Source: Acutalibacteraceae bacterium (GTDB taxonomy: Bacteria > Bacillota > Clostridia > Oscillospirales > Acutalibacteraceae). Taken from it: a DNA stretch of 64,000 nucleotides. A program made the translations under genes and the position numbers. Below, piece after piece: positions 7,091-64,000 of this stretch (position 1 is the stretch's first letter; every line of letters starts with the position of its first letter). The DNA is taken from positions 55,761-119,760 of the forward strand of contig JAZQHT010000014.1 in NCBI GenBank assembly GCA_045540715.1, in the 5' to 3' direction. The notes below the pieces were generated by a model that made no database searches, had not been told where the DNA came from, and saw only the letters and a program-made list of their open reading frames with translations.

Positions 7091-7114
7091 AAAAAGACGG
7101 TTTATACCGTCTTT

Positions 7115-8377
7115 TTATTTTGCTATTAAATATTCTTGTTCTTTATATAAACTCTGTTTGCCTGAAAGTAAAAACGAAATTATAACCGCAATTATAAAAT
7201 ATGGTGCTAAAGTAAAACCAAAAAGTTCAATACCTAATATTAAACTTGCAAGGGGTGTTTTTGTGCTTACACAAAAGATAACCACCATACAAACCGCGGC
7301 CGAAAAGGTTATGCTTAACCCCAAAATACTGCCAAAAAATGCGCCAAAGGTGGCTCCAACAAAAAAGCCGGGCACAATTTCTCCGCCTTTAAAGCCAACC
7401 GCCATTGTAATTGCTGTAAATAAAATTTTTAAAATAAAGGCATAATTCGGTATTATTTTACCTGCAAACACCCCGTCGATAACTTTTGTGCCGGTTCCTA
7501 AATAATCGGTACCAAAAACAAAAGACAAAATTACAATTATAACTGCGCCAAAAAGTATTCTGTTATACTCGTTTTTGCAAATTATTTTAAACAGTTTATT
7601 GCCAAAACGCATTGCCTTTACAAATATAATTCCAACTGCCGTTGCCGAAACAATTAAACCTAAAGTTTTTAAAATGGTAATTGCAGAAAATTCATCAACA
7701 AAAACCCTTTGTTTTAAAGCTGTTACCCCTAAACTTTTTGCAACAAAATACGCCGAAAAACTAGCCACTAAACTTTGAAAAACCGCACTTAAATAAATTT
7801 TACCAACACTTATTACGGTTACTGCAAAAATTGCGGCTGTAAGAGGGGTTGCAAAAACTGCCGAAAACATACCTGCAAGCCCTGCTATTATTAAAATTTT
7901 GGCGGCATCAAATGAAAATTTAAAAATTTTAGCAATACCTTTTGCAAAGCCTGCTCCAATTTGTAAAGCCGCCCCTTCTTTTCCGGCAGAACCGCCAAAA
8001 AGGTGGGTTATAACGCTTGAGACAAAAACCGCAAAACTTAAAACAGGTGAAAATTGATTTTTGTTTTGTATTGCTAAAAAGATAGTATTTGTGTTTTGAC
8101 CTTTAATTTTTAAAAGCCTATATAATAAAACAATTAAAACCCCAGCTAAGGGTAAAAAATAAATCAAAAAACCGTTTTCTGTTCTAAGAAAATTGGCGTA
8201 TGAAATTAAATGATAAAAAAGGCTACCAACTATACCACAAACAAGACCAAGCATTAAAGAAACACTTAGCCATAAAATAAGCGCCAAGAAATAATTCTTA
8301 GCGCTTTTGTTTTTAGTTTTTAGTATCGATAAAAACTCCACAAAAGCAACCTCGCTTTCATAAGAGAATTTTATCAT
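7115..8377 (-). CDS. ClC-family anion channel/antiporter (possibly CLC-F type)
   Basis: 420 aa polytopic protein. Motifs GGSAGKEGAALQIG and GFKGGEIVPGFFVGA. No CBS domains. Confidence 0.8.
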   Translation of the reverse strand: MIKFSYESEVAFVEFLSILKTKNKSAKNYFLALILWLSVSLMLGLVCGIVGSLFYHLISYANFLRTENGFLIYFLPLAGVLIVLLYRLLKIKGQNTNTIFLAIQNKNQFSPVLSFAVFVSSVITHLFGGSAGKEGAALQIGAGFAKGIAKIFKFSFDAAKILIIAGLAGMFSAVFATPLTAAIFAVTVISVGKIYLSAVFQSLVASFSAYFVAKSLGVTALKQRVFVDEFSAITILKTLGLIVSATAVGIIFVKAMRFGNKLFKIICKNEYNRILFGAVIIVILSFVFGTDYLGTGTKVIDGVFAGKIIPNYAFILKILFTAITMAVGFKGGEIVPGFFVGATFGAFFGSILGLSITFSAAVCMVVIFCVSTKTPLASLILGIELFGFTLAPYFIIAVIISFLLSGKQSLYKEQEYLIAK

Positions 8378-8397
8378 ACTTTATATTTTTTTGCAAT

Positions 8398-9705
8398 TTA
8401 TTTATGCTTAAATAAATGTGCCATTGGGTGTGGTGTTACGTGAATTTTTTCACCACGTGAAGATTTGTGTTCTTCAGGTTTAATTTCGCCCGCTTTTGTA
8501 AGGGCAATTTTAGTAAGTAATGGACCAACAAGCTCGTAAATAAGCACAGAGAATAAAATTATATTTCTAATAATTTTACCGGGTTCGCCAAGTTCTTCTG
8601 CCTTTAATGCCATACCAAGTGCCACACCTGCTTGCGGAAGCAAGGTTATACCTAAATATTTAACAATATTTTCATCACATTTTGTTGCTTTAGAGCTAAT
8701 TCTAGCCCCATAATATTTACCAAGCGAACGCGAAGCAATATAAACAAGACCAATTGCCACAACCATTATATTACTAAAGGTTTTTAGTTCAAGTTCTGCG
8801 CCCGAAAGCACAAAGAATAAAATAAACATAGGGGCAGTCCAACGGTCCAGTCTATCCATAAGTTCTTCAGAGAAATCACACAAGTTGCAGAACATTGTGC
8901 CAAGCATCATGCAAGTAAGCAAACTTGAAAATGCAATATCTATACCAAATACCCTAAACTTTAGCATTGAAAGGGCAACAGTTACAAGCACAAATGCAAC
9001 GCTCATGGAAAGACGTTTACTGCGCGAGTGGAAAAATCTTTCGAAAAAGTTGAATACAACGCCCATCAACGCGCCAAGGGCAATCGACAAAATAACCTCT
9101 AAAAGCGGTTCAACAATTATAGAAATAAAATCTATACCATCTGCATTTAAAGACTTTGCAACACCAAAAGAAATTGCAAATAAAACTAGTCCCACTGCAT
9201 CATCAAGTGCTACAACAGGTAAAAGAATATCGGTTACAGGGCCTTTAGCTTTATACTGTCTTACAACCATTAAGGTAGCAGCAGGAGCAGTAGCAGAAGC
9301 TACAGCGCCTAAAACAATAGCAGCAGGAAGTGGTAAAACGTCGGGTATTAAAAAATGAAGCCCAATTAACGCCGCATCAACTACAATGGTTGTAAAAACC
9401 GCTTGCAAAATACCAATAACAGTTGCTTGTTTTCCGGTTTTTTTAAGCTGAGATAATCTAAATTCATTACCAATTGAAAAAGCAATAAAACCTAAAGCTA
9501 CGTCGGCAATTATGGTGTAACTTTTAACGTCTGCCATATTAATAAAACCAAGACCCGCAACACCAAAAGAGCCTAAAAGATATGGGCCAATTAAAACGCC
9601 CGCAACCAAATAAGCAGTTACTGCAGGAAGTTTAACGCGTTTTGCTAAACGTGAAAGCATTAGTCCTGCAAAAAGCGCAACTGATAAAGTAATTAAAATT
9701 TGCAT
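8398..9705 (-). CDS. cation:proton antiporter (CPA2 / Na+/H+ exchanger family)
   Basis: 435 aa, 12-13 TM, typical Na_H_exchanger profile. Only a 20-nt gap to the ClC gene. Confidence 0.75.
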   Translation of the reverse strand: MQILITLSVALFAGLMLSRLAKRVKLPAVTAYLVAGVLIGPYLLGSFGVAGLGFINMADVKSYTIIADVALGFIAFSIGNEFRLSQLKKTGKQATVIGILQAVFTTIVVDAALIGLHFLIPDVLPLPAAIVLGAVASATAPAATLMVVRQYKAKGPVTDILLPVVALDDAVGLVLFAISFGVAKSLNADGIDFISIIVEPLLEVILSIALGALMGVVFNFFERFFHSRSKRLSMSVAFVLVTVALSMLKFRVFGIDIAFSSLLTCMMLGTMFCNLCDFSEELMDRLDRWTAPMFILFFVLSGAELELKTFSNIMVVAIGLVYIASRSLGKYYGARISSKATKCDENIVKYLGITLLPQAGVALGMALKAEELGEPGKIIRNIILFSVLIYELVGPLLTKIALTKAGEIKPEEHKSSRGEKIHVTPHPMAHLFKHK

Positions 9706-33700: not shown

Positions 33701-33762
33701 GAAAACACCGACCTTTTTGTTTTATTATATCATAAAACCATAAATCAAACAAGGCGTATCAT

Positions 33763-33860
33763 ATTTCATAGCGAAGCTATTTCACATTACGAAGTAATAT
33801 TTCACTCGCCGTAAGACAAATTTCATTGAAAAGACGACTTGTCGAAACAAGTCGTTTTTT
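33763..33860 (+). repeat. array of four ATTTCA + short-hairpin modules ending in a terminator-like hairpin
   Basis: ATTTCA at 33763, 33779, 33799 and 33820. Hairpins TAGC-GAA-GCTA (contains GCGAAGC), ATTAC-GAA-GTAAT and ACGACTTGT-CGAA-ACAAGTCGT followed by TTTTTT. Confidence 0.6.
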
Positions 33861-50956: not shown

Positions 50957-51769
50957 CTATTCTTTTATGCCAAAAAGTTTTTTGGCGTTTTCTCCTAAGA
51001 TTTTGCGGAAAGCTATTTCTGAAAGGTTTAAAGACATAAAGTAATCAATCTCTTCTTTTGGGTTCCACATTGGGTAATCAGTACCAAAAAGAACGCGGTC
51101 TTCACCATAAGCATTTATAAGTTCTAATGCCTTTTGCTTATCTTTAATAAAAGGAAAGCTTGAAGAACAGTCAACGTAAAAATTATTGTGCTTTGGTAAA
51201 ACCTTAATTGCTTCATCCCAAATTGAATAGCCGCCAAAGTGTGCGCCAATAACCTGCAAATCGGTATATGTTTCTAAAATAGGTATTAGGCGATTGGGGT
51301 TTGAATAATCGTAACGCTTATCGCCTGTGTGAAGCAAAAGAACAAGCCCCTCTTTTTCCATAAGCTCGTAAATTTTTAAGCATCTGTAATCGTCTAATTT
51401 AAAGGCCTGAATATCGGGATGAAGCTTAACGCCCTTAAGTCCTAGTTCTTTTAAATGAGCAATATCGCCTTTTATATCTTCGCTTTCAGGGTGAAGTGTG
51501 CCAAGTCCCAACATTTTACCGTTAGATTCTGCCACTTCACGGGCAATAAATTCGTTTATGCTTTTAACTTGTTTTGGGGTTGTTGCAACAGACTGCACTA
51601 TCATAAAATCTATGCCGGCTTTTTCGGCTTCGGTGTGCAAATCAGATACCGTTCCCTTGCAAGCAAACACCTGATTATAAAAGGTGCTTGTGCCCATAAC
51701 CGCCCTTTCGGCAATTTTTTCGGGGTAAATGTGGCAATGGGCATCTATAACAAAATAATCTTTAACCAT
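50957..51769 (-). CDS. amidohydrolase-2 (COG2159-type TIM-barrel metal-dependent hydrolase/decarboxylase) family protein
   Basis: 270 aa. VIDAHCHIYPEKIA HxH motif. Confidence 0.7.
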   Translation of the reverse strand: MVKDYFVIDAHCHIYPEKIAERAVMGTSTFYNQVFACKGTVSDLHTEAEKAGIDFMIVQSVATTPKQVKSINEFIAREVAESNGKMLGLGTLHPESEDIKGDIAHLKELGLKGVKLHPDIQAFKLDDYRCLKIYELMEKEGLVLLLHTGDKRYDYSNPNRLIPILETYTDLQVIGAHFGGYSIWDEAIKVLPKHNNFYVDCSSSFPFIKDKQKALELINAYGEDRVLFGTDYPMWNPKEEIDYFMSLNLSEIAFRKILGENAKKLFGIKE

Positions 51770-51771
51770 TT

Positions 51772-54267
51772 TTAATCCTTACAATATTTCTTTTGGGCGT
51801 CTTCACGCATTTTATATTTTAAAATTTTACCCGCCGCGTTCATAGGAAATGCATCAACAAAATCGATATATTTTGGCACCTTATGACGAGCCATATTAGC
51901 CGCAATATATTCCTTCATTTCTTGTTCGGTCATGGTTTCGCCTTTCTTTAAGATAACACAAGCGCAAATTTCTTCGCCATATTGCTTATCGGGTACGCCG
52001 ATAACCTGAACGTCGGAAACTTTATTGTTGGTATAAATAAATTCTTCAATTTCTTTGGGGTAAATATTTTCGCCACCGCGAATAATCATATCTTTTAAGC
52101 GGCCTGTAATTAGATATGTGCCGTCAGGTCTTCTGGCTGCTAGGTCGCCTGTATGAAGCCAACCGTCTTCATCTATTGCTTCGCTTGTGGCATCGGGCAT
52201 TTTATAATAACCCTTCATAATGTTATAACCACGTGCAACAAATTCGCCGTTTTCCATATCTTTACAGTCTTCGCCGGTTTCGGGGTTAATAACCTTGCAC
52301 TCAACGTTAGCAAAAGCAGAACCAACCGTTTCTGTTCTAACCTCTAAAGAATCTGTAAATGAACTCATTGTGCAACCGGGACTTGCTTCTGTTTGCCCAT
52401 AAACCGAAACAATTTGTTTCATATTCATAACTTCGGTGGCTTTTTTCATAAGTTCAGCCGGGCAGTTAGCACCTGCCATAATACCCGTTCTGATATAAGA
52501 AAAGTCGGTCTTTTCAAAATCAGGGTGTTGCATCATTGCAATAAACATTGTTGGAACACCGTTAAAGCAGGTAATATGCTCGTTATGAACGCAAGAAAGT
52601 GCAGGGCCCGGTGAAAAATACGGTAGTGGGTACATAGTAGCGCCGTGTGTCATAGATGCGGTCATAGAAAGCACCATACCAAAGCAGTGGAACATTGGAA
52701 CTTGAATCATCATCCTATCTGCCGTTGATAAATCCATATGGTCGCCAATATATTTACCGTTATTAACAACGTTATAATGTGTTAACATAACACCTTTAGG
52801 AAAACCGGTAGTACCTGAAGTGTATTGCATATTGCATACGTCGTTTGGTTTTACAAGGGCGGCTAAACGAAGCACCTCTTCACGAGGAACTTGATTCGAC
52901 ATATTAACAGCTTCATCCCAAGTCATACAACCCTTTTGTTTAAAGCCACAGGTAATAACGTTGCGTAAAAAGGGCAAACGTTTTGAGTGTAATTTTGCGG
53001 TGGGTTTTTTATTTTCAAGCTCGGGACAAAGTTCAGCAATGATTTTACCGTAATGGGTATCTTTTGAGCCCTCTGTCATAATTAGTGTGTGAGTATCTGA
53101 CTGACGAAGCAAATATTCGGCTTCGTGAATTTTATAGGCGGTATTAACAGTAACTAAAACCGCGCCAATTTTTGTTGTTGCCCAAAAAGCAATATACCAT
53201 TGTGGAACGTTTGAGGCCCAAACCGCAACGTGAGAACCAGGGCGAACACCCATTGCAATTAAAGCGCGGGCAAATTCGTCAACGTCGTCTCTAAATTCGC
53301 TGTAAGTACGGGTATAATCTAAGGTTGTGTATTTAAAACAGTATTGGTCGGGGAATTCTTCAACCATTTTATCTAATACACCCGAGAAGGTGTAATCAAT
53401 AAGCAAGTCTTTTTTCCAAATAAACTTACCTGTTCTATCGGTATTATAATAAAGTGTTTTTTCGGCAGCTTTTGTATCTGCAAACTGCTTCATATAGTTT
53501 AAAAATTGCGAATAGATAATCTCCATATCGTCAATTTCTGCACACCAGGTTGGGTCCCAAATTAATGAAATAAAGCCGTCGTAATTTACAGAACGCAAAG
53601 CGCTCATCATATCGGAAATAGGAATATTGCCTTCTCCTGCTAAACATCTTTCAATTTCGCCGTCCACCATTTTTGCATCGTAAAAATGAACGTGCTTAAC
53701 GTAAGCACCCAAATTTTTAATAACAATTTTTGGTTCTTCTTTGCCATATAAATAAGCAGTGGCAAAATTCCAAAGGGCTCCTAAATTGTCAGAAGCAAAG
53801 GTGCCTAATACCTCGCAAAGTTTTGCGGTTAAGCTATAAAGCCCTGCTGTTTCAATAAGTAGTGTAATATTTGTTTCTTCGGCAATTGGTAGTGCTTTTT
53901 CAATAAAGCTAATTACGTTTTTATTAGCGTTTTCAAAATCGCTACTATCTTCTGCACGCAAACGAATATAAGGAATTTTTAAGTTCTTTGCAATTTCAAT
54001 GCAAGAAGCTGTTTCTTCTAATGCAACATCTACGTTTTTTGCAATATCTGCAACCACGTCAATACAAGCAAGTGTTAATTTTTGTTCATATAGTTTTCTA
54101 ACGGTTTTAGCGGCGGTATAATCGTGAAAAGCCCCGTCTTTATCGGTAAAGAGGCGGTTTTTTATATTATGAAGTTCAATGCCGTCAAACTTTAAATCTT
54201 TAGCAATAGCACAAAATTCTTCAAAATTATTGTTGTGCCAACCCTTTGTCGAAAAGGAAAATTTCAT
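51772..54267 (-). CDS. fusion protein: xylose-isomerase-like TIM barrel (sugar phosphate isomerase/epimerase family) + AMP-forming acyl-CoA ligase
   Basis: 831 aa. The N-terminal roughly 270 aa (MKFSFSTKGWHNNNFEEF...GIELHN...) is AP_endonuc_2-like. The C-terminal part carries MQYTSGTTGFPKGV, WLHTGDLA and GRLKDMIIRGGENIYPKEIEE. Confidence 0.75.
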   Translation of the reverse strand: MKFSFSTKGWHNNNFEEFCAIAKDLKFDGIELHNIKNRLFTDKDGAFHDYTAAKTVRKLYEQKLTLACIDVVADIAKNVDVALEETASCIEIAKNLKIPYIRLRAEDSSDFENANKNVISFIEKALPIAEETNITLLIETAGLYSLTAKLCEVLGTFASDNLGALWNFATAYLYGKEEPKIVIKNLGAYVKHVHFYDAKMVDGEIERCLAGEGNIPISDMMSALRSVNYDGFISLIWDPTWCAEIDDMEIIYSQFLNYMKQFADTKAAEKTLYYNTDRTGKFIWKKDLLIDYTFSGVLDKMVEEFPDQYCFKYTTLDYTRTYSEFRDDVDEFARALIAMGVRPGSHVAVWASNVPQWYIAFWATTKIGAVLVTVNTAYKIHEAEYLLRQSDTHTLIMTEGSKDTHYGKIIAELCPELENKKPTAKLHSKRLPFLRNVITCGFKQKGCMTWDEAVNMSNQVPREEVLRLAALVKPNDVCNMQYTSGTTGFPKGVMLTHYNVVNNGKYIGDHMDLSTADRMMIQVPMFHCFGMVLSMTASMTHGATMYPLPYFSPGPALSCVHNEHITCFNGVPTMFIAMMQHPDFEKTDFSYIRTGIMAGANCPAELMKKATEVMNMKQIVSVYGQTEASPGCTMSSFTDSLEVRTETVGSAFANVECKVINPETGEDCKDMENGEFVARGYNIMKGYYKMPDATSEAIDEDGWLHTGDLAARRPDGTYLITGRLKDMIIRGGENIYPKEIEEFIYTNNKVSDVQVIGVPDKQYGEEICACVILKKGETMTEQEMKEYIAANMARHKVPKYIDFVDAFPMNAAGKILKYKMREDAQKKYCKD

Positions 54268-54270
54268 TTA

Positions 54271-55641
54271 TTACGCCTCCTCGTAAACAATCTTGTTAAC
54301 AGCGCTAATATATGCGCGAATACCTGCTCCTAAAATATCGGTTGAAATACCTTGACCGGAATATAATTTTCCGTCTTTGCGAAGCTTAATAATAGCAGAG
54401 CCCATTGCTCCTTTACCTTCTGTAACTGCTTGAATTTGAAAATCGTCAAGCTCGTAGTGTGTGCCCAAAATTTTGTCAATAGCTTTAAATGCGGCGTCAA
54501 TAGGACCGTCGCCAATTTCAACAGCCGAAATATCTTCACCGTTTTTATTTAAAGTAATTTGTGCAGAAGAAGAAATAATGTTACCGCTATTAATAATAAA
54601 GTTAACTAATTTATAAGTAGAAGGAACTTGAAGTGCAACAGAAGCGATAATGGCTTCTAATTCTTTTGAGCCAACCGTTTTCTTTTCTGCGGTGCGCTTA
54701 AATTCTTCATAAACTTTAGCGTTATCTTCTTCGGTTAAGTCATAACCTAAAAGCATAACTGCTTTTTTAACGGCGGCTTCATCGTCTTTTTCGTCCAAAC
54801 GAATAACGTTGTCTTCTTGTGATATATTGCTACCGTTTACTCCGCCTTTATTATCTGTAACCCAGTTAATTTGATTAATAATTCTGCTTAACTGTGTATA
54901 TTTAATGTTACTGCTATAACCATTACGGTTACCGCTGTTTTTAACCATTTCCGAGAAGGTATATAAATCGGGGGCTGAACCTTTAACACAGGTTTTAACG
55001 CTATCAGCACCACTCATTACTGCCATAATGCTTTTTGCAATAGAAAGGCCATTTTTATCTTCGCAATAAACACCAACAGAAATATTGGTTTCGGCTTTAA
55101 TTTCTTTAATAAACGCAGCAAATTCGTCGGGCATCATTTCTGCAAAATTGTCACAGATTGTTACGCTTGTAGCCCCCGCATTTTCTGCAGTTTTTATTGC
55201 ATTAATTAAAAAGGCTTTGTCGGCTCTTGTGGCATCCATTGCAAAAAATTCAACGTCTAAAACCTTTTCTTTTGCTGCGGCAATTACCTTTTCAATAACC
55301 GAAAGCATTTTATCAGGTTTTTTGTGGCAGGTATATTCCATACCAACAGTAGATACAGGAAGTGCCACCTTTATTCTTTTATTTTTTGCTGTTACTAGTG
55401 CTTCTGCCGCTTTTTCTACGGTATCAACACTTGTTGCAGTAACACTAATGGTAGTGTTTTTTACAAAAGAACAAATTGTTTTAATGCATAAAATATCAAT
55501 TCGATCATTTTCAATTTCGGGTAATTCTAATATATCAACATTAAGCATGCTCAGTTTTCTGGCAATCTCTAATCTTTCTTTAAAAGAAAATGCGTTTTCT
55601 TTAAAGGTTAGTGTTGCATCACATAGTTTAATGTTTTTCAT
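54271..55641 (-). CDS. LeuA (2-isopropylmalate/homocitrate synthase)-like protein with degenerate active site and an intact C-terminal LeuA regulatory domain
   Basis: CDATLTFKEN replaces DTTLRDGEQ, and VYCEDKNGL replaces HxHNDlG. The C-terminus GDGPIDAAFKAI...GKGAMGSAIIKL...GQGISTDILGAGIRAYISAVNK is LeuA_dimer-like. ATG 55641 follows SD AAGGAGAAA. Confidence 0.7.
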   Translation of the reverse strand: MKNIKLCDATLTFKENAFSFKERLEIARKLSMLNVDILELPEIENDRIDILCIKTICSFVKNTTISVTATSVDTVEKAAEALVTAKNKRIKVALPVSTVGMEYTCHKKPDKMLSVIEKVIAAAKEKVLDVEFFAMDATRADKAFLINAIKTAENAGATSVTICDNFAEMMPDEFAAFIKEIKAETNISVGVYCEDKNGLSIAKSIMAVMSGADSVKTCVKGSAPDLYTFSEMVKNSGNRNGYSSNIKYTQLSRIINQINWVTDNKGGVNGSNISQEDNVIRLDEKDDEAAVKKAVMLLGYDLTEEDNAKVYEEFKRTAEKKTVGSKELEAIIASVALQVPSTYKLVNFIINSGNIISSSAQITLNKNGEDISAVEIGDGPIDAAFKAIDKILGTHYELDDFQIQAVTEGKGAMGSAIIKLRKDGKLYSGQGISTDILGAGIRAYISAVNKIVYEEA

Positions 55642-55663
55642 AATTTTTCTCCTTAAAATAAAA

Positions 55664-55940
55664 TAAAAAAGCCCCTGAAACCACAAAATATGGTTTCAGG
55701 GACGAAAAATCTTTTCGCGGTACCACCCTGATTACCGTTAAAAATAACGGTCACTCTGCGGTGTTCTAACAAACACCCTGCCATGATAACGGGGCAAGCC
55801 GTAGCCACTTACTGTTATTTCAGCGACTCTGCTCCGGAACGAGACTTTCATTTAATTAGGTATTGGCTCACACCGGCCGCCAACTCTCTGAAACTCTAGC
55901 TTTAAACGAAATAATTCCTTCATTGCATTTATTAAATTAT
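55664..55940 (-). promoter_or_regulatory. T-box riboswitch leader 1 (hand-assigned specifier CUC = Leu)
   Basis: Minus strand elements: K-turn UGC-AAU-GA.../...GGA-GCA; AG bulge plus distal loop AGAGAGUUGGCGGCCGGUGUGAGCCAA; specifier loop GAAAGU-CUC-G next to helix GGAA/UUCC (CUC = 55841..55843); T-box AAUCAGGGUGGUACCGCG (55716..55733); terminator CCCCUGAAACCA...UGGUUUCAGGGG + U-run (55664..55702). Confidence 0.85.
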
Positions 55941-55945
55941 AAAAA

Positions 55946-55974
55946 ATTTTAACACCAAAAATTCCGTTTGTCAA
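55946..55974 (-). promoter_or_regulatory. sigma-A promoter of T-box operon 1
   Basis: Minus strand: TTGACA, 17 nt, TAAAAT. Confidence 0.7.
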
Positions 55975-55991
55975 TACTAAATTAAATATTT

Positions 55992-56333
55992 TTATTCTTC
56001 TGGTATATAAAGCTCCATATCTACAGCTTTGCCATCTTCAATTGTGATTTTCCAATAATCATTAAAATCGCCAAACATATCATAATAGGGATAAATAACA
56101 TACCCTTCTTCTAATTCGTTGGCTGGCAAGTTTGGTTCTTTTGCTTTGGGTTCTCCAAATTTTTCTTCAAGTTCTACTGCAGACTTACCTATTACGTTTT
56201 TCTCCAATAAATCTCCAGAATCATCAAAAATGTGCATACCCAAAGTAACAATACTCGCAATTAAAACTAAGCCTAAAACTATAAATAATGCAATTATGAT
56301 TGTTTTTGATTTAGTTTGTTTTTTATCTTGCAT
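55992..56333 (-). CDS. small membrane-anchored hypothetical protein
   Basis: 113 aa. N-terminal TM, acidic C-terminal domain. Confidence 0.5.
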   Translation of the reverse strand: MQDKKQTKSKTIIIALFIVLGLVLIASIVTLGMHIFDDSGDLLEKNVIGKSAVELEEKFGEPKAKEPNLPANELEEGYVIYPYYDMFGDFNDYWKITIEDGKAVDMELYIPEE

Positions 56334-56451
56334 AATTCACCACTCAAAGCAGTTTTATTTTATAATAACACAAAAAAATAAAAAGTCAAACAAAAATAAA
56401 TATCAATCAAATAAGCTAAAATCTTTAACCTATCCCTTCGTCTTTTTGTTA

Positions 56452-56485
56452 GACAAAAACACACCTCCCTTTAGGCAAGGGAGGC
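56452..56485 (-). terminator. intrinsic terminator ending T-box operon 2
   Basis: Minus strand: CCUCCCU-UGCCUAA-AGGGAGG followed by UGUGUUUUUG. Confidence 0.75.
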
Positions 56486-56499
56486 TAGAGTGAAATTTA

Positions 56500-57561
56500 T
56501 TATAGTTCTTGTATCCAACCGAATTTATCTTCGATTTTGCCCCATTGAATACCTGTTAGAGTATCGTATAGGTGTTGGGTTGTCTCACCGATTTCACCGT
56601 TATTAACAGGGTATTTTTTGCCTTTATAGCAAAGTTCACCAATTGGAGAAACAACAGCGGCTGTGCCGCAGCCCCAAGCTTCTTTAAGTGTGCCGTTTTC
56701 TAAAGCAGCAGCTAATTCATCAATACTTAAAAGGCGTTCGCTAACCTTATAGCCCTCTTGCTTTAATACTTCAATACAAGACATTCTTGTAATGCCCGGT
56801 AAAATTGAACCCGAAAGCATAGGAGTTACAATTTCATCGCCAATTTTGAACATAACGTTCATAGCGCCTACTTCTTCAATATACTTTCTTTCAACGCCGT
56901 CTAGCCATAAAACCTGGCTATAACCAAGCTTAGCTGCTCTTTCACCTGCGCGGTTACTTGCGGCATAGTTACCACCGCATTTTGCATAACCTGTACCGCC
57001 GCGAACTGCACGAACGTCTTCATCTTCAATCATAATTTTAACGGGGTTAATGCCTTCTTTATAATAACTGCCAACAGGAGAGGCAATAATCATATAGGTT
57101 GCATTATCAACCGCGTGAACGCCTAAAGATTCGTCGTTACCAAATAAAAATGGTCTTAAGTAAAGGCTTGTGCCTTCTGCAGAAGGGGTCCAATCTTGTT
57201 CGTGTTTAACAAAGGTGGTTAGCACTTCCATTGCTAAGTCTTCAGGAATTTGCGGAAGACATAAACGCTCTGCTGAACGGTTTAATCTTCTAATATTTTC
57301 GATTGGGCGGAAAAGTTGAACAACTCCGTCTTTTCTTCTATATGCTTTTAGCCCTTCAAAAATTTCAGAACCATAATGAAGTACGGTTGAAGCCGGGTGA
57401 ATTGGAAAAGGTCCAAAAGGAACTATTCTTGCGTTATGCCAACCATCTTTTTTATTATAGTTCATAATAAACATATTGTCGGTAAAGATTTTACCAAAAC
57501 CCAAAGTGCTGCTATCGGGTTTTTCTTTTAAATTGTTATTTTCAAAAATTTTAATTTCCAT
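56500..57561 (-). CDS. ilvE: branched-chain amino acid aminotransferase (class IV, long form)
   Basis: 353 aa. ...HYGSEIFEGLKAYR..., EEVGAMNVMF and LPGITR blocks. Confidence 0.9.
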   Translation of the reverse strand: MEIKIFENNNLKEKPDSSTLGFGKIFTDNMFIMNYNKKDGWHNARIVPFGPFPIHPASTVLHYGSEIFEGLKAYRRKDGVVQLFRPIENIRRLNRSAERLCLPQIPEDLAMEVLTTFVKHEQDWTPSAEGTSLYLRPFLFGNDESLGVHAVDNATYMIIASPVGSYYKEGINPVKIMIEDEDVRAVRGGTGYAKCGGNYAASNRAGERAAKLGYSQVLWLDGVERKYIEEVGAMNVMFKIGDEIVTPMLSGSILPGITRMSCIEVLKQEGYKVSERLLSIDELAAALENGTLKEAWGCGTAAVVSPIGELCYKGKKYPVNNGEIGETTQHLYDTLTGIQWGKIEDKFGWIQEL

Positions 57562-57567
57562 AACAAA

Positions 57568-58101
57568 TTACTCCTTTGCACCTAAAGCCAATGCTTTACG
57601 GTTAAAGTCTAACATATTTGCTTTTTTAGCAGGAATTACCTTTGCAAGTGTTTTTTCAATACCTTCTTCGGTATATTCGTTAACCACTGCTAAAAGTTTA
57701 CCCATAATAATCATATTTGCAAGACCTTTTAAGCCGTTATCGTCGGCTAGTTTGGTTGCGTTTACGTAATAAACTGTAACGTCGGTTCTGTTTACTTTTC
57801 TTTCAATAAGTGTGCTATCGCAAATAATTATGCCGCCCGACTTTACTGTGGGCTCAAACTTATCTAAAGAAGGTAAATTCATTGCAACTAAAATATCGGG
57901 GTTGGAAACGATGGGGCTACCAACTGCTTCATCTGAAACAATAACACTGCAAGAAGCAGTACCGCCACGCATTTCGGGGCCGTAAGAAGGAAGCCAAGAA
58001 ACGTTTTTGTCTTCAATTAAACCTTTATATGCTAAAAATTTACCTGCAAATAAAATACCTTGACCGCCAAAACCCGAAAGTAAAATATTTTTTGTGTTCA
58101 T
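57568..58101 (-). CDS. 2-oxoacid:ferredoxin oxidoreductase gamma subunit
   Basis: 177 aa. LSGFGGQGILFAGKFLA. Confidence 0.85.
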   Translation of the reverse strand: MNTKNILLSGFGGQGILFAGKFLAYKGLIEDKNVSWLPSYGPEMRGGTASCSVIVSDEAVGSPIVSNPDILVAMNLPSLDKFEPTVKSGGIIICDSTLIERKVNRTDVTVYYVNATKLADDNGLKGLANMIIMGKLLAVVNEYTEEGIEKTLAKVIPAKKANMLDFNRKALALGAKE

Positions 58102-58102
58102 A

Positions 58103-58858
58103 TTATTTTACCTCGCTTTCTGCACTGCGATCTTTATAACAACCAAGTGGGTAATATGGAATCATTTTTTCGTCAATCCATTTTAGTGCATCAGATGGGC
58201 TCATACCCCAGTTGGTTGGGCAAGAAGAAACAACTTCTACTAAAGAAAAGCCCTTGCCGTCAATTTGGTTTTGAAATGCCTTTTTAATGGCTTTTTTAGC
58301 ATTTCTGATATTTTTAACGTTGTTAACTGTAACACGCTCTAAATATTCAGGTCCGTCAAGTTCTGATAACATTTCGCAAACCTTAATTGGAAAACCGCAA
58401 TGATTTGTATCACGGCCATAGGGAGAGGTTTGTGTTACTTGACCGGGTAATGAGGTTGGAGCCATTTGGCCGCCTGTCATACCATAAATTGCGTTGTTAA
58501 TAAAAATAATTGTAATGTTTTCGTTACGAGCAGCCGAATGAACGGTTTCTGCCATACCGATAGATGCTAAGTCGCCATCGCCTTGATATGTAAATACAAT
58601 GTGGTTTTCGGGGTCAGCACGTTTAACACCTGTTGCAACTGCAGGAGCACGACCGTGAGCGGCTTCAATCATATCGCAATTAAAATAGTTATAAGCCATA
58701 ACAGAGCAACCAACAGGTGCAATACCTATTGTTTTGCCTTCAATGCCAAGCTCGTCAATAACTTCTGCAACAAGGCGGTGAACAATACCGTGTGTGCAAC
58801 CTGGGCAATAGTGCATTGGAACGTCTGTTAATGCGTGGGGTTTATCAAATACTACCAT
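58103..58858 (-). CDS. 2-oxoacid:ferredoxin oxidoreductase beta (TPP-binding) subunit
   Basis: HYCPGCTHG and GDGDLASIG. ATG 58858 overlaps the alpha stop (TAATG), with SD AAGGAG 10 nt upstream. Confidence 0.9.
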   Translation of the reverse strand: MVVFDKPHALTDVPMHYCPGCTHGIVHRLVAEVIDELGIEGKTIGIAPVGCSVMAYNYFNCDMIEAAHGRAPAVATGVKRADPENHIVFTYQGDGDLASIGMAETVHSAARNENITIIFINNAIYGMTGGQMAPTSLPGQVTQTSPYGRDTNHCGFPIKVCEMLSELDGPEYLERVTVNNVKNIRNAKKAIKKAFQNQIDGKGFSLVEVVSSCPTNWGMSPSDALKWIDEKMIPYYPLGCYKDRSAESEVK

Positions 58859-59922
58859 TATTTTGCACACTCCTTATTTACAGCAATAATTTTTTCTAAT
58901 ACTTCTTCGGGGCTAACTATCATACCGCCTGTACGGTTACATAAATATACGGGTTTTTGACAGTTGGTTGCAAGTTTTACGTCGTCAATCATTTGACCCA
59001 TTGAAAGTTCAACAGAAATATATGCTTTTGCATTTTTAACTGTTTTAGTAAATGGGGCAACAGGGAAAGGCCAAAGTGTAATTGGACGAATAAGACCTGC
59101 TTTAATACCCATTTTTCTTGCTTCGTTAATAGCATTTTTAGAAACACGAGAAGCAATACCAAAAGCAACTAAAACAATATCAGCGTCTTCTGTTAAATAT
59201 TCTTCGTAAAGGGCTTCGGTTTCTTCAATTTTCTTATATCTTTCAAAACGCTCAAAGTTGGTTTTTTCTAACTCATCAGGAGAAAGGAATAAAGAGTTAA
59301 CAATATTATGTTCTCTTTCCATTTTAGTTCCTGTGGTTGCCCAAGGTTTATCTACCTTTTCGCCTTCGCAGAAATCTAAAGAAACAGGTTCCATCATTTG
59401 ACCCATTGTACCATCTGCTAAAATCATACTGGTCATTCTGTATTTATCGGCAAGTTCAAAACCTTTAACGGTAAGCTCTGCCATTTCTTGAACAGAGGCC
59501 GGAGCAAGAACAATCATTCTAAAGTCGCCGTGTCCGCCTGCTTTTGTTGCTTGATAATAATCGCTTTGAGATGGTTGAATACCACCTAGTCCCGGACCAC
59601 CACGTTGAACGTTAACAACTAATGCAGGTAAATCTGCACCTGCTAAATAAGAAAGGCCTTCGCTTTTTAATGCAACACCCGGACTTGAAGAAGAGGTCAT
59701 AACTCTTTTACCGGTGCTACTTACGCCGTAAACCATATTAATAGCGGCAATTTCGCTTTCTGCTTGTAAAAAACAACCGCCAATTTTGGGCATCTTTTTT
59801 GCCATATAAGCGGCAATTTCGGTTTGTGGTGTGATTGGGTAACCAAAGTAATGGCGGCAACCTGCAAGAATTGCGGCTTCTGCTATTGCTTCATTTCCCT
59901 TCATTAAAACTTTATCTGCCAT
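58858..59922 (-). CDS. 2-oxoacid:ferredoxin oxidoreductase alpha subunit
   Basis: 354 aa. MKGNEAIAEAAILAGC... Confidence 0.9.
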   Translation of the reverse strand: MADKVLMKGNEAIAEAAILAGCRHYFGYPITPQTEIAAYMAKKMPKIGGCFLQAESEIAAINMVYGVSSTGKRVMTSSSSPGVALKSEGLSYLAGADLPALVVNVQRGGPGLGGIQPSQSDYYQATKAGGHGDFRMIVLAPASVQEMAELTVKGFELADKYRMTSMILADGTMGQMMEPVSLDFCEGEKVDKPWATTGTKMEREHNIVNSLFLSPDELEKTNFERFERYKKIEETEALYEEYLTEDADIVLVAFGIASRVSKNAINEARKMGIKAGLIRPITLWPFPVAPFTKTVKNAKAYISVELSMGQMIDDVKLATNCQKPVYLCNRTGGMIVSPEEVLEKIIAVNKECAK

Positions 59923-59929
59923 TTTTACA

Positions 59930-60136
59930 CTACCTTTCTACCTTAATAATGCAGTCGGGACACATCATTGCGCAAGCTGCACAGCCAACACAAGCGGCCT
60001 CGTCGGTAATTTCTGCGGGGTGGTGTCCTTTTTTGTTGATTTTGTCCATTGCAAGTTTAATTAAACCTTTAGGACAAGCCTCAACACAAAGGGCGCAACC
60101 TTTACATTTGTCGGTTTTAAACGTTAATTTTGCCAT
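59930..60136 (-). CDS. 2-oxoacid:ferredoxin oxidoreductase delta subunit (2x[4Fe-4S] ferredoxin)
   Basis: 68 aa. CKGCALCVEACP and CVGCAACAMMCP. Confidence 0.9.
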   Translation of the reverse strand: MAKLTFKTDKCKGCALCVEACPKGLIKLAMDKINKKGHHPAEITDEAACVGCAACAMMCPDCIIKVER

Positions 60137-60158
60137 AAGTTTCTCCCCTTATATAAAG

Positions 60159-60821
60159 TTATATAACTGTTTTTTGTAACTTTAACGGAACAAGATTTTC
60201 TATTTTTTCTTTTAGTTCGTCATAAAGTTCTTCTTTAACTGTTGTAAAGGCAATTTTTAAGCCGGTTTTTTCTGACAGCTCTTTTGCAATTTCTACACTG
60301 CTTAAAAGGTCTTCTTTTGTGGTTTCTTTACCCAAATTAGAATTATTAATAAGCCCTGTAAAGCGCATTTTAGAAGCAATTTCAATTTCGTTTAATACTT
60401 CTATTAAACTTTCAGTATCTCTTGTAAGCGGTCTAAAAGTATTAATTACAAACAACATTTCGTAATCGTTTTCTTGCTTTAGCGCTTCACTTAAACGCCC
60501 AATAGCAAGTGCTCCTCTATCGTCGCCGCCAACGTCTATAATTGCTTTCAAGGTTTTATCGTGAATTAAACTATAAACGTCGCTTGGCATTGAGGGTATA
60601 TCAACGTTACTGTTAGCATATTCTGAACAAATAAGCCTAATGCCGTCTTTTTTGAAAATTTCTTCGCTGTCTTTGGTTCTAAAATATGGGTTAACTATAT
60701 CCAGGTCGGCAATTGCTACGTTATCGTACTGTTTTTTCAGATCGTACGCCAAGTTTACAGCGATATTGGTTTTGCCGCTGCCATAGTGCCCCATAATAAG
60801 TGTAATTCTTTTATATTTCAT
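60159..60821 (-). CDS. P-loop NTPase (SIMIBI-class, MinD/CooC/G3E-like), function unknown
   Basis: 220 aa. Walker A GHYGSGKT, and DVGGDD, a possible Walker B/switch. 2-nt gap to the upstream gene. Confidence 0.6.
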   Translation of the reverse strand: MKYKRITLIMGHYGSGKTNIAVNLAYDLKKQYDNVAIADLDIVNPYFRTKDSEEIFKKDGIRLICSEYANSNVDIPSMPSDVYSLIHDKTLKAIIDVGGDDRGALAIGRLSEALKQENDYEMLFVINTFRPLTRDTESLIEVLNEIEIASKMRFTGLINNSNLGKETTKEDLLSSVEIAKELSEKTGLKIAFTTVKEELYDELKEKIENLVPLKLQKTVI

Positions 60822-60823
60822 AA

Positions 60824-63112
60824 TTATAACAGATTTCTTTGAATTTTGCCGCTTACAGTTTTTGGTAAGCTCTCTTTAAATTCAACAATTCTAGGATATT
60901 TATAAGGTGCGGTTTTTTCTTTAACGTAGGTTTGAATTTCTTTTTTAAGTTCATCGGTGCCTGCTGTTCCTTTAACTAGAACAACACTCGCTTTAACAAT
61001 TTGTCCGCGAACTTCATCGGGAACTGCAGAAACACCGCATTCAAGTACGTAAGGAAGTTCCATAATAACGCTTTCAATTTCAAATGGGCCAATGCGGTAG
61101 CCTGAAGACTTAATAACGTCGTCAACGCGGCCAACGTACCAATAAAATCCGTCTTCATCGCGCCAAGCGGTATCGCCTGTGTGATAATAGCCGTCGTGCC
61201 AAACTTCGTCGGTCTTTTCTTTGTCGTTATAATAACCGGTAAATAATCCCGGTGGAACACCCTCTTTAAGGTTAATTACAATTTCGCCGGCTTCACCAGA
61301 AGGTGTTGGGTTACCATCTGCATCCATAAGTTCAACGTTATAAATTGGAGCAGATTTACCCATAGAGCCAATTTTATGACTAGCGCCTACCATATTACCA
61401 ATAATCATGGTGCTTTCGGTTTGACCAAAGCCCTCGATAATTTGAAGTCCCGTTGCTTTTTCAAATTGACGGTAAACTTCGGGGTTTAGCGCTTCACCCG
61501 CGGTTGTCATATGCTTAACAGATGAAAAATCGTAATTATTAATATCTTGCTTAACCATCATTCTAAGCATTGTTGGAGGTGCACAGAAGGTGGTTATTTT
61601 ATATTTAGAGAACATTGGTAAAATATCGGCCGCATCAAAACGGTCAAAGTCGTAAACAAAGATTGCGCCTTCGCATAACCATTGTCCGTACATTTTACCC
61701 CACATTGCTTTTGCCCAACCTGTATCTGAAATGGTAAAGTGAAGACCATTTGGATCAACGTTGTGCCAATATCTTGCAGTGTGGAAATGTCCTAATGGGT
61801 ATTTATAGTTATGAACTGCAATTTTGGGATAGCCGCTTGTCCCCGAAGTAAAATACATAAGCATTGTATCTTCGCCACAAGGTGCATCTTTAGTTCTATT
61901 ATAGTGGGTTGAATATAAGGTATATTCTTCGTCAAAGTTACGCCAACCGTCTCTTTGTTTACCAACTATAATTTTATTAATCATACCATCGTAATTTTTT
62001 AGTGCTTCATCAACCTTATCGGCAGCACCGTCTTCACTGGTACAAATAATTGAGGTAATACCTGCTGAACGAAAACGATATTCATAATCGTGTTCTTTAA
62101 GTTGGCTTGTTGCAGGAATTGCAATAGCGCCTAGTTTATTAAGGCCTAACATACTAAACCAGAACTGATAGTGACGTTTAAGTACAAGTAAAACTCTGTC
62201 GCCTTTCTTTATACCTAAAGATTTAAAATAGTTAGCGCATTGGTTAGATGCCTTTTTCATATCTTTAAAGGTAAAACGACGTTCTTGCTTATCTTTAGAA
62301 ACGTGTAACATTGCAAGTTTATTAGGCTCTTTTGAAGCCATTTCGTCAATAAGGTCAAATGCAAAGTTAAATTTATCGGTGTTCTTAAACTCAATTTTTG
62401 TGGGAGTACCGTTTTCGTTTTCTTCCGTATCAATAAACTTACGATAAATTCTTTCTTCGGTATCTTTTAAACCTTTTGTATTTAAAGGCACTGCCTTTAC
62501 GGGTGTAAGTTCTGGAATTGGTTCGCCCGTTGGGTTTAAAACAATAGCATAGAAAATACAATCCTTACCGCCTGTTGCAATCATACCGTGAGGTGTATCA
62601 CTATCGAAATAAATGCTATCTCCGGGTCCTAAAATTTCTCTATGCTCGCCAATTTGAACAAGCAAGTTACCTTCAACAACAATATCGCACTCCTGACCTT
62701 CGTGGGTGGTTAGTTCAATATCTCTGTTTTCGGCAGTTTCGTCGTAAATGCTTCTAACGTAAAGGGGCTCTGCAATACGGTTTTGAAAAGAATAAGCTAG
62801 GTTAAAATATGTCATACCGTGTGCTTGAGCAATTTTTTGACCCTGTCCGTTTTTAGTAACGGTATAGCTTTTAAGTTTTGGGCTATAACCTTCGATAATA
62901 TCGGTTACGTTAACGCTTAATGCTAAGGCACAACGATAAATAAAGGCAAAGTTAAGATCACTCTTACCCTCTTCACAAAGCAAATATTCATCTACCGTAA
63001 CGCCTGTTTTTGCCGCCATTTCAGTTGGGGTAAGACCTTCAATTTCGCGAAGCTCTTTAATACGGCCGGCCATTTCCTTAATTTTAAAATCAAGTCCTGT
63101 AATTTGTTCCAT
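60824..63112 (-). CDS. three-domain fusion: XRE-type HTH + cupin + AMP-forming (medium-chain type) acyl-CoA synthetase
   Basis: 762 aa. HTH GLTPTEMAAKTGVTVDEYLLCEEGKSDL; cupin HEGQECDIVVEGNLLVQIGEHREILGPGDSIYFDSDTPHGM; synthetase [49 protein letters not shown] and PKTVSGKIQR. Confidence 0.8.
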   Translation of the reverse strand: MEQITGLDFKIKEMAGRIKELREIEGLTPTEMAAKTGVTVDEYLLCEEGKSDLNFAFIYRCALALSVNVTDIIEGYSPKLKSYTVTKNGQGQKIAQAHGMTYFNLAYSFQNRIAEPLYVRSIYDETAENRDIELTTHEGQECDIVVEGNLLVQIGEHREILGPGDSIYFDSDTPHGMIATGGKDCIFYAIVLNPTGEPIPELTPVKAVPLNTKGLKDTEERIYRKFIDTEENENGTPTKIEFKNTDKFNFAFDLIDEMASKEPNKLAMLHVSKDKQERRFTFKDMKKASNQCANYFKSLGIKKGDRVLLVLKRHYQFWFSMLGLNKLGAIAIPATSQLKEHDYEYRFRSAGITSIICTSEDGAADKVDEALKNYDGMINKIIVGKQRDGWRNFDEEYTLYSTHYNRTKDAPCGEDTMLMYFTSGTSGYPKIAVHNYKYPLGHFHTARYWHNVDPNGLHFTISDTGWAKAMWGKMYGQWLCEGAIFVYDFDRFDAADILPMFSKYKITTFCAPPTMLRMMVKQDINNYDFSSVKHMTTAGEALNPEVYRQFEKATGLQIIEGFGQTESTMIIGNMVGASHKIGSMGKSAPIYNVELMDADGNPTPSGEAGEIVINLKEGVPPGLFTGYYNDKEKTDEVWHDGYYHTGDTAWRDEDGFYWYVGRVDDVIKSSGYRIGPFEIESVIMELPYVLECGVSAVPDEVRGQIVKASVVLVKGTAGTDELKKEIQTYVKEKTAPYKYPRIVEFKESLPKTVSGKIQRNLL

Positions 63113-63143
63113 AGTAAGTACTCTTTCCTTTTTCTTTTGGGAC

Positions 63144-63417
63144 TAAAAAAACTCGTCCCAAAGTTATTGCTTTGAGACGAGTGTGAATATTTCATACCCG
63201 CGGTACCACTCAAATTGCAAGAATAATCTTGCCACTCTCGGAATCTAACAATTCCTATGTCTTAACGCGACAACACGGGAAGATTCTACTAAAGATAAAC
63301 TTGTTCTTTCTTCCGGCTTAGAAGCTACAACATAAATTTTTCACCATTGGCTTGCACCCACCGCCAACTCTCTAAAGGTTACTAATAAATATGCCCTCTT
63401 CGTCAAAGCTTTTAACG
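63144..63417 (-). promoter_or_regulatory. T-box riboswitch leader 2 (specifier tentatively UUU = Phe)
   Basis: Minus strand elements: S-turn AGUA; AG bulge plus distal loop AGAGAGUUGGCGGUGGGUGCAAGCCAA (63345..63374); specifier loop GAAAAA-UUU-A (UUU = 63334..63336); T-box UUUGAGUGGUACCGCGGG (63197..63216); terminator CUCGUCUC...GGGACGAG + U7 (63144..63181). Confidence 0.8.
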
Positions 63418-63423
63418 GACTAT

Positions 63424-63452
63424 ATTCTAACATAACTTTGTAAAACTGTCAA
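63424..63452 (-). promoter_or_regulatory. sigma-A promoter of T-box operon 2
   Basis: Minus strand: TTGACA, 17 nt, TAGAAT. Confidence 0.7.
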
Positions 63453-63506: not shown

Positions 63507-64000
63507 TTATAATTTATTTCTTTGGATTTTGCCGCTAATAGTTTTAGGTAATTCATCCTTAAATACCACAATTCTTGGGTATTTATAAGGAGCAGTGTGG
63601 CTTTTAACGTAGTCTTGAATTTCTTTTTTAAGTGCATCTGTGCCTTCTGTTCCCTTGGTTAAAACAATGCTTGCTTTAACAACCTGACCGCGAATTTCAT
63701 CGGGAGCGGCAGATACACCGCACTCTACAACGTAAGGAAGTTCCATAATAACGCTTTCAATTTCAAATGGGCCAATGCGGTATCCAGAAGATTTGATAAC
63801 GTCGTCAATACGGCTAACGTACCAGAAATATCCGTCTTCATCGCGCCAAGCGGTATCGCCTGTGTGATACATATTATCATAAACGGCATCGTCGGTTTTT
63901 TCTTTATCTAGATAATATTCTTTAAACAATCCGCAAGGAACACCATCTTTAAGTCTAACAACGATTTCGCCAACTTCACCAGTGGCCACCGGTTTGCCCT
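63507..64000 (-). CDS. AMP-forming acyl-CoA synthetase paralog, C-terminal part only (N-terminus beyond the right edge)
   Basis: The frame stays open to the window end (..[14 protein letters not shown]..). [38 protein letters not shown] and [10 protein letters not shown]. Very similar to the C-terminus of 60824..63112. Confidence 0.85.

Follow-up and report, generated by a model that had tools for sequence, protein, structure and literature searches.

Which amino acid does a T-box-controlled operon serve when it carries an acyl-CoA synthetase, a 2-oxoacid:ferredoxin oxidoreductase (OFOR) and an aminotransferase, and from what precursor would that amino acid be made? The question is raised by a stretch of 64,000 nucleotides from the contig JAZQHT010000014.1 of an Acutalibacteraceae bacterium (the window hereafter; all coordinates are window positions). 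There, on the minus strand, seven closely packed genes follow a T-box leader, a class of RNA that induces genes when the cognate tRNA is uncharged. Work going back to the 1960s established that cellulolytic bacteria of the rumen require isobutyrate, 2-methylbutyrate and isovalerate and carboxylate them into branched-chain amino acids (BCAAs); this is why dairy cattle are given branched-chain volatile fatty acids in their feed. The leader described here is a valine T-box. Judging from the sequence evidence set out below, it probably controls an operon that makes valine from exogenous isobutyrate.

The valine T-box leader

The leader (63170..63415) matches the Rfam T-box family RF00230 over its full length (model positions 1-219) with 106 bits (E 2e-22), the gathering score of the family being 93 bits. 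Upstream of it a consensus scan found a sigma-70-type promoter, TTGACA-17-TAGAAT, with 11 of 12 matches and a TG-extended -10 (63424..63452). Stem I, as delimited by alignment and covariation, covers 63316..63410 and includes a K-turn at its base, a basal helix, the specifier internal loop, a covarying middle helix, an AGAGA bulge and a distal loop. The basal helix, just above the K-turn, pairs GAAG (63398-63401) with CUUC (63321-63324). The conserved T-box sequence AAUUUGAGUGGUACCGCGGG lies at 63197..63216 and contains, at 63205-63208, the UGGU that would pair the 3' ACCA of the tRNA; its presence in the T-box bulge predicts a discriminator A73. A terminator scan identified the leader intrinsic terminator at 63144..63182, formed by a 13-pair stem (63182..63151) and a U run. 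In the Rfam alignment the antiterminator uses the 5' arm of this terminator as its own 3' arm, the two folds being mutually exclusive. A first-pass annotation of the locus, made from the letters alone, had already proposed this promoter, a complete T-box leader and the predicted discriminator A73, all of which agree with these results.

Orthologous loci were collected from one genome per species. A relative of the fusion protein encoded by the first gene of the operon was found in 588 of 600 candidate stretches, the best 80 of which were kept, and 77 of these loci had enough upstream DNA to compare their Val leaders. The hosts are rumen and gut metagenome-assembled genomes (MAGs) of Acutalibacteraceae and Oscillospiraceae. 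In the window, as in 76 of the 77 orthologous upstream regions, the AGUGGUACCGCG motif precedes the gene, and a TTGACA-17-TGnTAnAAT promoter stands before nearly every orthologous Val leader.

The amino acid specificity was read from the Rfam alignment, which sets GUA-G (63328..63325) in the codon-plus-purine slot, directly 5' of CUUC. The specifier codon is thus GUA (Val) at 63326..63328, followed by the purine G at 63325. Tallies of the alignment columns gave GUA in 76 Val leaders and GUC in one, so that the lone change is synonymous, and the next base was a purine in all 77 (G in 70, A in 7). The basal helix by the specifier covaries (GAAG/CUUC in 57, GAAA/UUUC in 12 and GGAG/CUCC in 5) and is 100% paired. 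Since a GUA/GUC-purine beside this covarying helix holds in 77/77 leaders, the leader reads valine. The fold of Stem I itself was analysed with RNAalifold on 75 Stem I sequences, where compensatory changes were found in 19 of the 21 predicted pairs. On this fold 89.6% of the cells were paired, compared with 34-47% when the partners were slid by 1-3 columns. Double-change cells amounted to 254, against 70 ± 10 in shuffled alignments, and none of 500 shuffles reached as high a value. The AGAGA bulge was invariant among the aligned Val leaders. When RF00230 was run on L081, a 93% relative that we used for the DNA past the window edge, the leaders with isoleucine and leucine specificity described below reached the gathering threshold and the Val leader did not.

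A different specifier had been proposed in the first-pass annotation, where a hand fold placed GAAAAA-UUU-A in the specifier loop (UUU at 63334..63336) and gave phenylalanine as the first choice, with AUU, AAU or AAA as alternatives; the operon would then make phenylalanine from phenylacetate. The stretch GAAAAAUUUA can indeed be drawn by hand in the window sequence next to a possible GGCA/UGUU helix, and the carboxylation of phenylacetate is known physiologically in rumen anaerobes (work listed among the references of PMC7356843). However, the comparison of the 77 orthologous leaders, a check that the same annotation had suggested together with the RF00230 search, revealed that this stretch is variable and is not conserved as a specifier. 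It supplies the 3' strand in the uppermost part of the middle helix, which covaries, and L081 has CUU where the window has UUU, whereas the valine codon and its purine keep their place by the basal helix and in the Rfam codon slot. Among the alternatives, isoleucine is the specificity of the neighbouring leader (AUC) and not of this one, and AAU (Asn) and AAA (Lys) are ruled out by the alignment and its covariation. The proteins do not fit this product either, the OFOR being of the VorB type and not of the indolepyruvate type, and the aminotransferase being IlvE. Hence phenylalanine, or any of these other codons, is extremely improbable. We also considered an AGUA...GAA S-turn around an ACC/GGU helix, with the specifier loop higher in the stem; this arrangement is not conserved in other species and was dropped.

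Apart from its reduced specifier loop, the RNA is a typical T-box in all the features tested.

Gene content of the operon

The first gene, ACS2 (60824..63112), codes for a protein of 762 amino acids in which Pfam identifies an XRE-type helix-turn-helix (HTH), a cupin and an AMP-forming acyl-CoA synthetase (ACS), the putative isobutyrate-CoA ligase. It is followed by a P-loop NTPase of the SIMIBI class with 220 amino acids and weak CbiA/ParA Pfam matches (60159..60821), and by the four OFOR subunits. These are delta (59930..60136; 68 amino acids, ferredoxin-like with 2x[4Fe-4S], from Pfam and NCBIfam), VorB-type alpha (58858..59922; NCBIfam NF005507, with POR_N and PFOR_II domains), beta (58103..58858; binding thiamine pyrophosphate (TPP) according to Pfam) and gamma (57568..58101; Pfam and NCBIfam). 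The last gene (56500..57561) codes for a class IV branched-chain amino acid aminotransferase, assigned to IlvE with NCBIfam. Along the operon the intergenic gaps are 2, 22, 7, -1, 1 and 6 nucleotides. The -1 assumes that beta starts at the ATG at 58858, chosen by analogy with the L081 gene of 251 amino acids, since the open reading frame (ORF) list starts this subunit at an upstream GTG. The terminator scan placed an operon-terminal intrinsic terminator at 56463..56485. Seven genes with these domains, gaps of -1 to 22 nucleotides and a single terminator at the end had been described at first pass, and the ORFs, Pfam and NCBIfam agree with that description.

The synthetase domain of the fusion is 52% identical over 515 residues (621 bits) to MacsMa (PDB 3ETC), an enzyme that prefers 2-methylbutyrate (PMC10455477). 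Among the NCBIfam models its best match is MbcS, the branched short-chain acyl-CoA synthetase of staphylococci, although the score stays below the equivalog cut-off. Thousands of proteins share the 762-residue fusion at 76-97% identity, and relatives of it are found in at least 588 species-level genomes of gut and rumen Clostridia. For the alpha subunit the VorB subfamily model NF005507 gives 535 bits, above its cut-off of 399. IlvE passes two equivalog cut-offs, with 477 against 307 bits for NF009897 and 401 against 250 for TIGR01123.

Two parts of the operon are less familiar. The N-terminal ~240 residues of the fusion are similar to regulators of the XRE-cupin kind, 1Y9Q and PuuR among them. 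Inspection by eye of ~130 promoter regions revealed no conserved palindrome that might be an operator for the HTH, the -35 and the extended -10 being all that is conserved there. As to the NTPase, a sequence search of the PDB yielded no relative. Its AlphaFold model has a predicted local distance difference test score (pLDDT) of 87, and the best matching folds are SRP54/FtsY and the ATPase-type HypB, with template modelling (TM) scores of about 0.5. The gene stands between the ACS and the OFOR genes in 44 of the 51 loci that had 5.6 kb or more of downstream DNA, on which the downstream gene content was counted. It thus codes for a conserved, uncharacterised OFOR-associated protein, and by analogy we would guess at a role in the maturation or assembly of the Fe-S/TPP enzyme.

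The proposed route to valine

In the mechanism that we propose, an uncharged tRNA-Val (anticodon UAC, discriminator A73) would pair its anticodon with the GUA specifier of Stem I and its free ACCA end with the UGGU of the T-box bulge. The antiterminator would thereby be stabilised, and the RNA polymerase would read through the leader terminator and transcribe the operon. The AMP-forming synthetase would then convert isobutyrate into isobutyryl-CoA, ATP being split to AMP and PPi. Drawing on CO2 and reduced ferredoxin, the four-subunit VorB-type OFOR would carboxylate this thioester reductively and so form 2-oxoisovalerate, which IlvE would transaminate to valine.

The direction of this route is inferred from two facts. 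One is the induction logic of the T-box. The other is that an AMP-forming synthetase spends two ATP equivalents to commit the acid to the thioester, and a fermentative, ATP-conserving pathway would not employ such an enzyme. Both argue for a biosynthetic rather than a degradative operon. As for the substrate, isobutyrate is the only acid that is one CO2 short of 2-oxoisovalerate. Together with the Val specifier, a synthetase related to branched-acid enzymes, a VorB-type OFOR and IlvE, this chemistry gives a coherent route to valine. The first-pass annotation had put forward the general scheme, a biosynthetic, T-box-gated path from acid to acyl-CoA, 2-oxo acid and amino acid. This core idea fits all the evidence and is strengthened by its conservation in dozens of species and by the sibling BCAA T-boxes; phenylalanine as the product has to be given up.

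A conserved cluster with three T-boxes

The order of the genes across the loci was established by tblastn of the window proteins. A recurrent arrangement appeared, with a paralogous synthetase gene (ACS1) first, then the Val operon and, in many species, genes for a LeuA-like protein and for a TIM-barrel::ACS fusion. The Val operon is therefore the middle module of a conserved cluster with three T-boxes, and each of the three leaders has its own conserved copy of the promoter. Behind the Val-T-box synthetase, the full set of NTPase, OFOR and ilvE is found in 39/51 loci. In five species (L026, L048, L056, L066 and L077) ilvE is located between the synthetase and the NTPase.

Only the 3' end of ACS1, an HTH-cupin-ACS gene like ACS2, falls inside the window (63507..64000, minus strand, by comparison with L081). 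The truncated ORF (63507..63989) is 92% identical to the ACS1 of L081 versus 77.5% to ACS2. By tblastn ACS1 is 59-68% identical to the window fusion across the loci, and it is present in 53 of the 66 loci with enough upstream DNA. In the relatives it has its own promoter and Ile T-box; in the window this leader would fall past the edge. In L081 the leader and ACS1 occupy 7060-9619, and the Ile T-box (7060-7301) scores 96 bits with AUC-A in the codon slot. The slot holds AUC in 58/58 Ile leaders; the next base is A, C or G, and the basal helix comes after it. Outside the specifier region the Ile and Val leaders are almost copies of each other, a pattern that suggests that leader and gene were duplicated in tandem and the specifier was switched. 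T-boxes are known to evolve by duplication with a change of specifier (PMC3766115). No terminator was seen in the window between ACS1 and the promoter of the Val leader, so that transcripts driven by the Ile T-box would enter the Val leader.

On the other side of the operon, a promoter scan and Rfam (134 bits) identified a promoter and a leucine-specific T-box leader with CUC-G (55695..55974, the T-box itself at 55695..55932), also on the minus strand, as are the genes that it precedes. The codon slot of 29 orthologous leaders contains CUC in 25, CUG in three and CCC in one, this last leader standing before a divergent paralog. The first gene (54271-55686) is a LeuA homologue that motif comparison shows to be catalytically degenerate. 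The motif DTTLRDGEQ has become DATLTFKEN and the metal ligands HCH have become YCE. Both metal-ligand histidines are gone in 29 of the 30 LeuA-like orthologues, the first being kept in L058. The protein misses all the NCBIfam LeuA cut-offs and retains the leucine-binding LeuA_dimer domain (E 6e-32). Judged by its motifs it is a pseudo-enzyme that has lost the isopropylmalate synthase active site, so the Leu module does not encode ordinary leucine synthesis. As a speculation, it might sense leucine on behalf of the synthetase next to it. This third synthetase (51772-54267) is an ACS fused to a xylose-isomerase-like TIM barrel, according to Pfam. It is followed by an Amidohydro_2 protein (PF04909, Pfam; 50957-51769), whose best PDB match is the uncharacterised BB4693; PF04909 includes reversible decarboxylases. 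No canonical ilv or leu genes were found among the ~40 annotated ORFs of the 64-kb window.

Ile, Val and Leu T-boxes thus each stand before one synthetase, so each BCAA is matched to one acyl-CoA synthetase. The sibling switches probably gate the entry steps from 2-methylbutyrate to isoleucine and from isovalerate to leucine. ACS1 would admit 2-methylbutyrate and TIM::ACS would admit isovalerate as their likely substrates, and their products would go on to the OFOR and IlvE of the Val operon.

This layout bears on a second explanation of the Val operon, which accepts the valine T-box and gives the leading part to IlvE. The aminotransferase would serve de novo valine synthesis, while the synthetase and the OFOR would provide lipid primers (isobutyryl-CoA) or balance 2-oxo acids in the oxidative direction. 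MbcS, whose model is the best NCBIfam match of the synthetase, is a lipid-primer enzyme that supplies branched-chain membrane fatty acid primers in Staphylococcus aureus. That OFORs are reversible is established knowledge, and ilvE genes under T-box control are catalogued in bacilli and lactobacilli in the supplement of PMC3766115. Yet a lipid-primer role gives no reason for placing synthetases behind Ile, Val and Leu T-boxes. Moreover, a drain of 2-oxoisovalerate at the moment when tRNA-Val is uncharged would deepen the very starvation that is sensed, and in 5 of the 51 loci synthetase and OFOR are kept in the absence of ilvE. We consider this explanation unlikely.

Paralogous synthetases and substrate range

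The comparison of the Ile and Val paralogs gives some indications about what each of them might recognise. Their identity is 0.44 in the HTH, 0.54 in the cupin and 0.74 in the catalytic domain. There are 21 positions fixed differently in the two groups, 14 of them within the HTH/cupin residues 1-240 and seven in the catalytic domain (258, 325, 467, 470, 482, 569 and 572). The HTH-cupin module is nevertheless conserved within each paralog, and this pattern of divergence suggests a ligand or a DNA site particular to each. The catalytic differences include the size trades A467G, A482G and G572A, and the Ile paralog has the residue of MacsMa at positions 467 and 572. These trades lend weak support to substrates that would differ by one methylene.

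The same enzymes could be imagined to work on other acids. The synthetases would take straight-chain acids and a generalist OFOR would carboxylate the products, for instance from propionate to 2-oxobutyrate for isoleucine, and there would be no one-to-one correspondence with the T-boxes. This propionate route has been described in Clostridium sporogenes and in methanogens. The alpha subunit is alone among the four in passing a model of the 2-oxoisovalerate:ferredoxin oxidoreductase (VOR) type, the paralogous synthetase domains differ at no more than those seven fixed positions, and the first half-reaction of MacsMa adenylates C3-C8 acids (PMC10455477). Valine, however, has no straight-chain acid precursor that could be reached through a single carboxylation, and the three size trades, with the MacsMa residues of the Ile paralog, are what substrates one methylene apart would lead one to expect. 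That the operon carboxylates acids other than those proposed seems to us a quite unlikely explanation.

Points against the proposed route

The synthesis of valine from isobutyrate has to be weighed against several observations that speak against it. The specifier loop, with AGN on its 5' side and UUGUAR on its 3' side, is short and does not show the S-turn consensus GAA/AGUA that is canonical for T-boxes. The MbcS model is matched by the synthetase with 440 bits, far from its cut-off of 850, and the assignment stays below the equivalog level. None of the curated NCBIfam VOR cut-offs is reached by the beta, gamma and delta subunits, which match generic OFOR domains, and the best model for beta is a 2-oxoglutarate enzyme (131 bits, cut-off 364). 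The NTPase and the HTH-cupin domain have no assigned step in the route. Some loci depart from the complete gene set, ilvE alone being missing in 5/51 and the Val-T-box synthetase standing alone in 7/51 (L031, L036, L040, L049, L051, L073 and L074), with no OFOR within 8 kb. Finally, OFOR and IlvE are found behind the Val T-box only, and starvation for isoleucine alone or leucine alone would not obviously raise them. With these points taken into account, we still regard valine synthesis from isobutyrate as the probable function of the operon.

A broader proposal can be made more tentatively. The cluster may possibly be a complete, modular, tRNA-gated system that would let the cell live on branched-chain fatty acids in place of de novo BCAA synthesis. 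Its T-boxes (Ile AUC, Val GUA, Leu CUC) would gate synthetases for 2-methylbutyrate, isobutyrate and isovalerate respectively, all of them feeding one VOR and one IlvE, and ligand-sensing modules (two fused XRE-HTH/cupin and one LeuA homologue that has lost catalysis and retains its leucine-binding domain) would add control by product or substrate at the protein level.

Other features of the window

Between the terminator of the Val operon and the promoter of the Leu T-box there is an ORF of 113 amino acids with a hydrophobic N-terminal stretch (55992-56333, minus strand), and a promoter-like site of its own is found at 56389..56362. A Gut-1 RNA (RF01706, 63 bits) is located at 33758-33828 on the minus strand, by genes for tRNA-Tyr and tRNA-Thr.

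Comparison with known systems

The leader shares with well-known T-boxes (e.g. those of valS, ileS and ilvBHC-leuABCD) the same architecture from Stem I to the terminator, with the codon and its purine above the K-turn, a UGGN bulge and a terminator/antiterminator switch. It differs from them in the genes under its control and in a Val specifier loop that is unusually short, with neither GAA nor AGUA. In the surveys of T-box regulons that were searched, PMC3766115 among them, no mention of acyl-CoA synthetase or ferredoxin oxidoreductase genes was found; the search was incomplete and a prior mention is possible.

The sequence of steps is that of the physiological and labelling reports (PMC7356843 and PMC10658910), in which acid is converted to acyl-CoA, 2-oxo acid and amino acid; here it is proposed from genes. 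Habitat and lineage are also shared, since those reports concern ruminococci and their relatives and our loci come from rumen and gut MAGs. A literature search of incomplete coverage gave no bacterial operon or regulation tied to the carboxylation of branched acids, and no T-box ahead of VOR or acyl-CoA synthetase genes.

Regarding the enzymes, MacsMa and the MbcS of S. aureus are likewise AMP-forming synthetases for small branched acids. They lack the N-terminal XRE-HTH and cupin (~240 residues) of the fusion found here, for which the proposed role is in the synthesis of amino acids and not of lipid primers. The four-subunit VORs of archaea and anaerobic bacteria have the same set of delta, alpha, beta and gamma, including the TPP and Fe-S domains. 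Most of the VORs characterised so far are catabolic, those of methanogens being the exception. For these, Tersteegen et al. in 1997 reportedly described an anabolic VOR, which is not known to be under T-box control. Compared with the characterised VORs, the genes described here stand beside an activating synthetase, an aminotransferase and a P-loop NTPase, under predicted starvation control. The T-box itself is well known. What appears to be new is the defined operon, its control by a T-box, the layout of three codons and three synthetases, and the unusual fusions.

Implications

The cluster provides named candidate genes for every step of the long-known assimilation of branched acids, and makes this route genetically testable. 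The specifier codons act as a built-in annotation of the amino acid served by each module, and with them predictions of auxotrophy and cross-feeding in uncultured Oscillospirales become testable as well. T-box regulons, catalogued for de novo synthesis, transport and charging, would come to include the salvage of fermentation acids, and two unusual architectures are flagged, a synthetase fused to an HTH-cupin module and a LeuA that has lost its catalytic residues. If the tentative proposal of a complete modular system were true, these genes would supply the genetic explanation, so far missing, for the need for branched-chain volatile fatty acids in ruminococci and their gut relatives.

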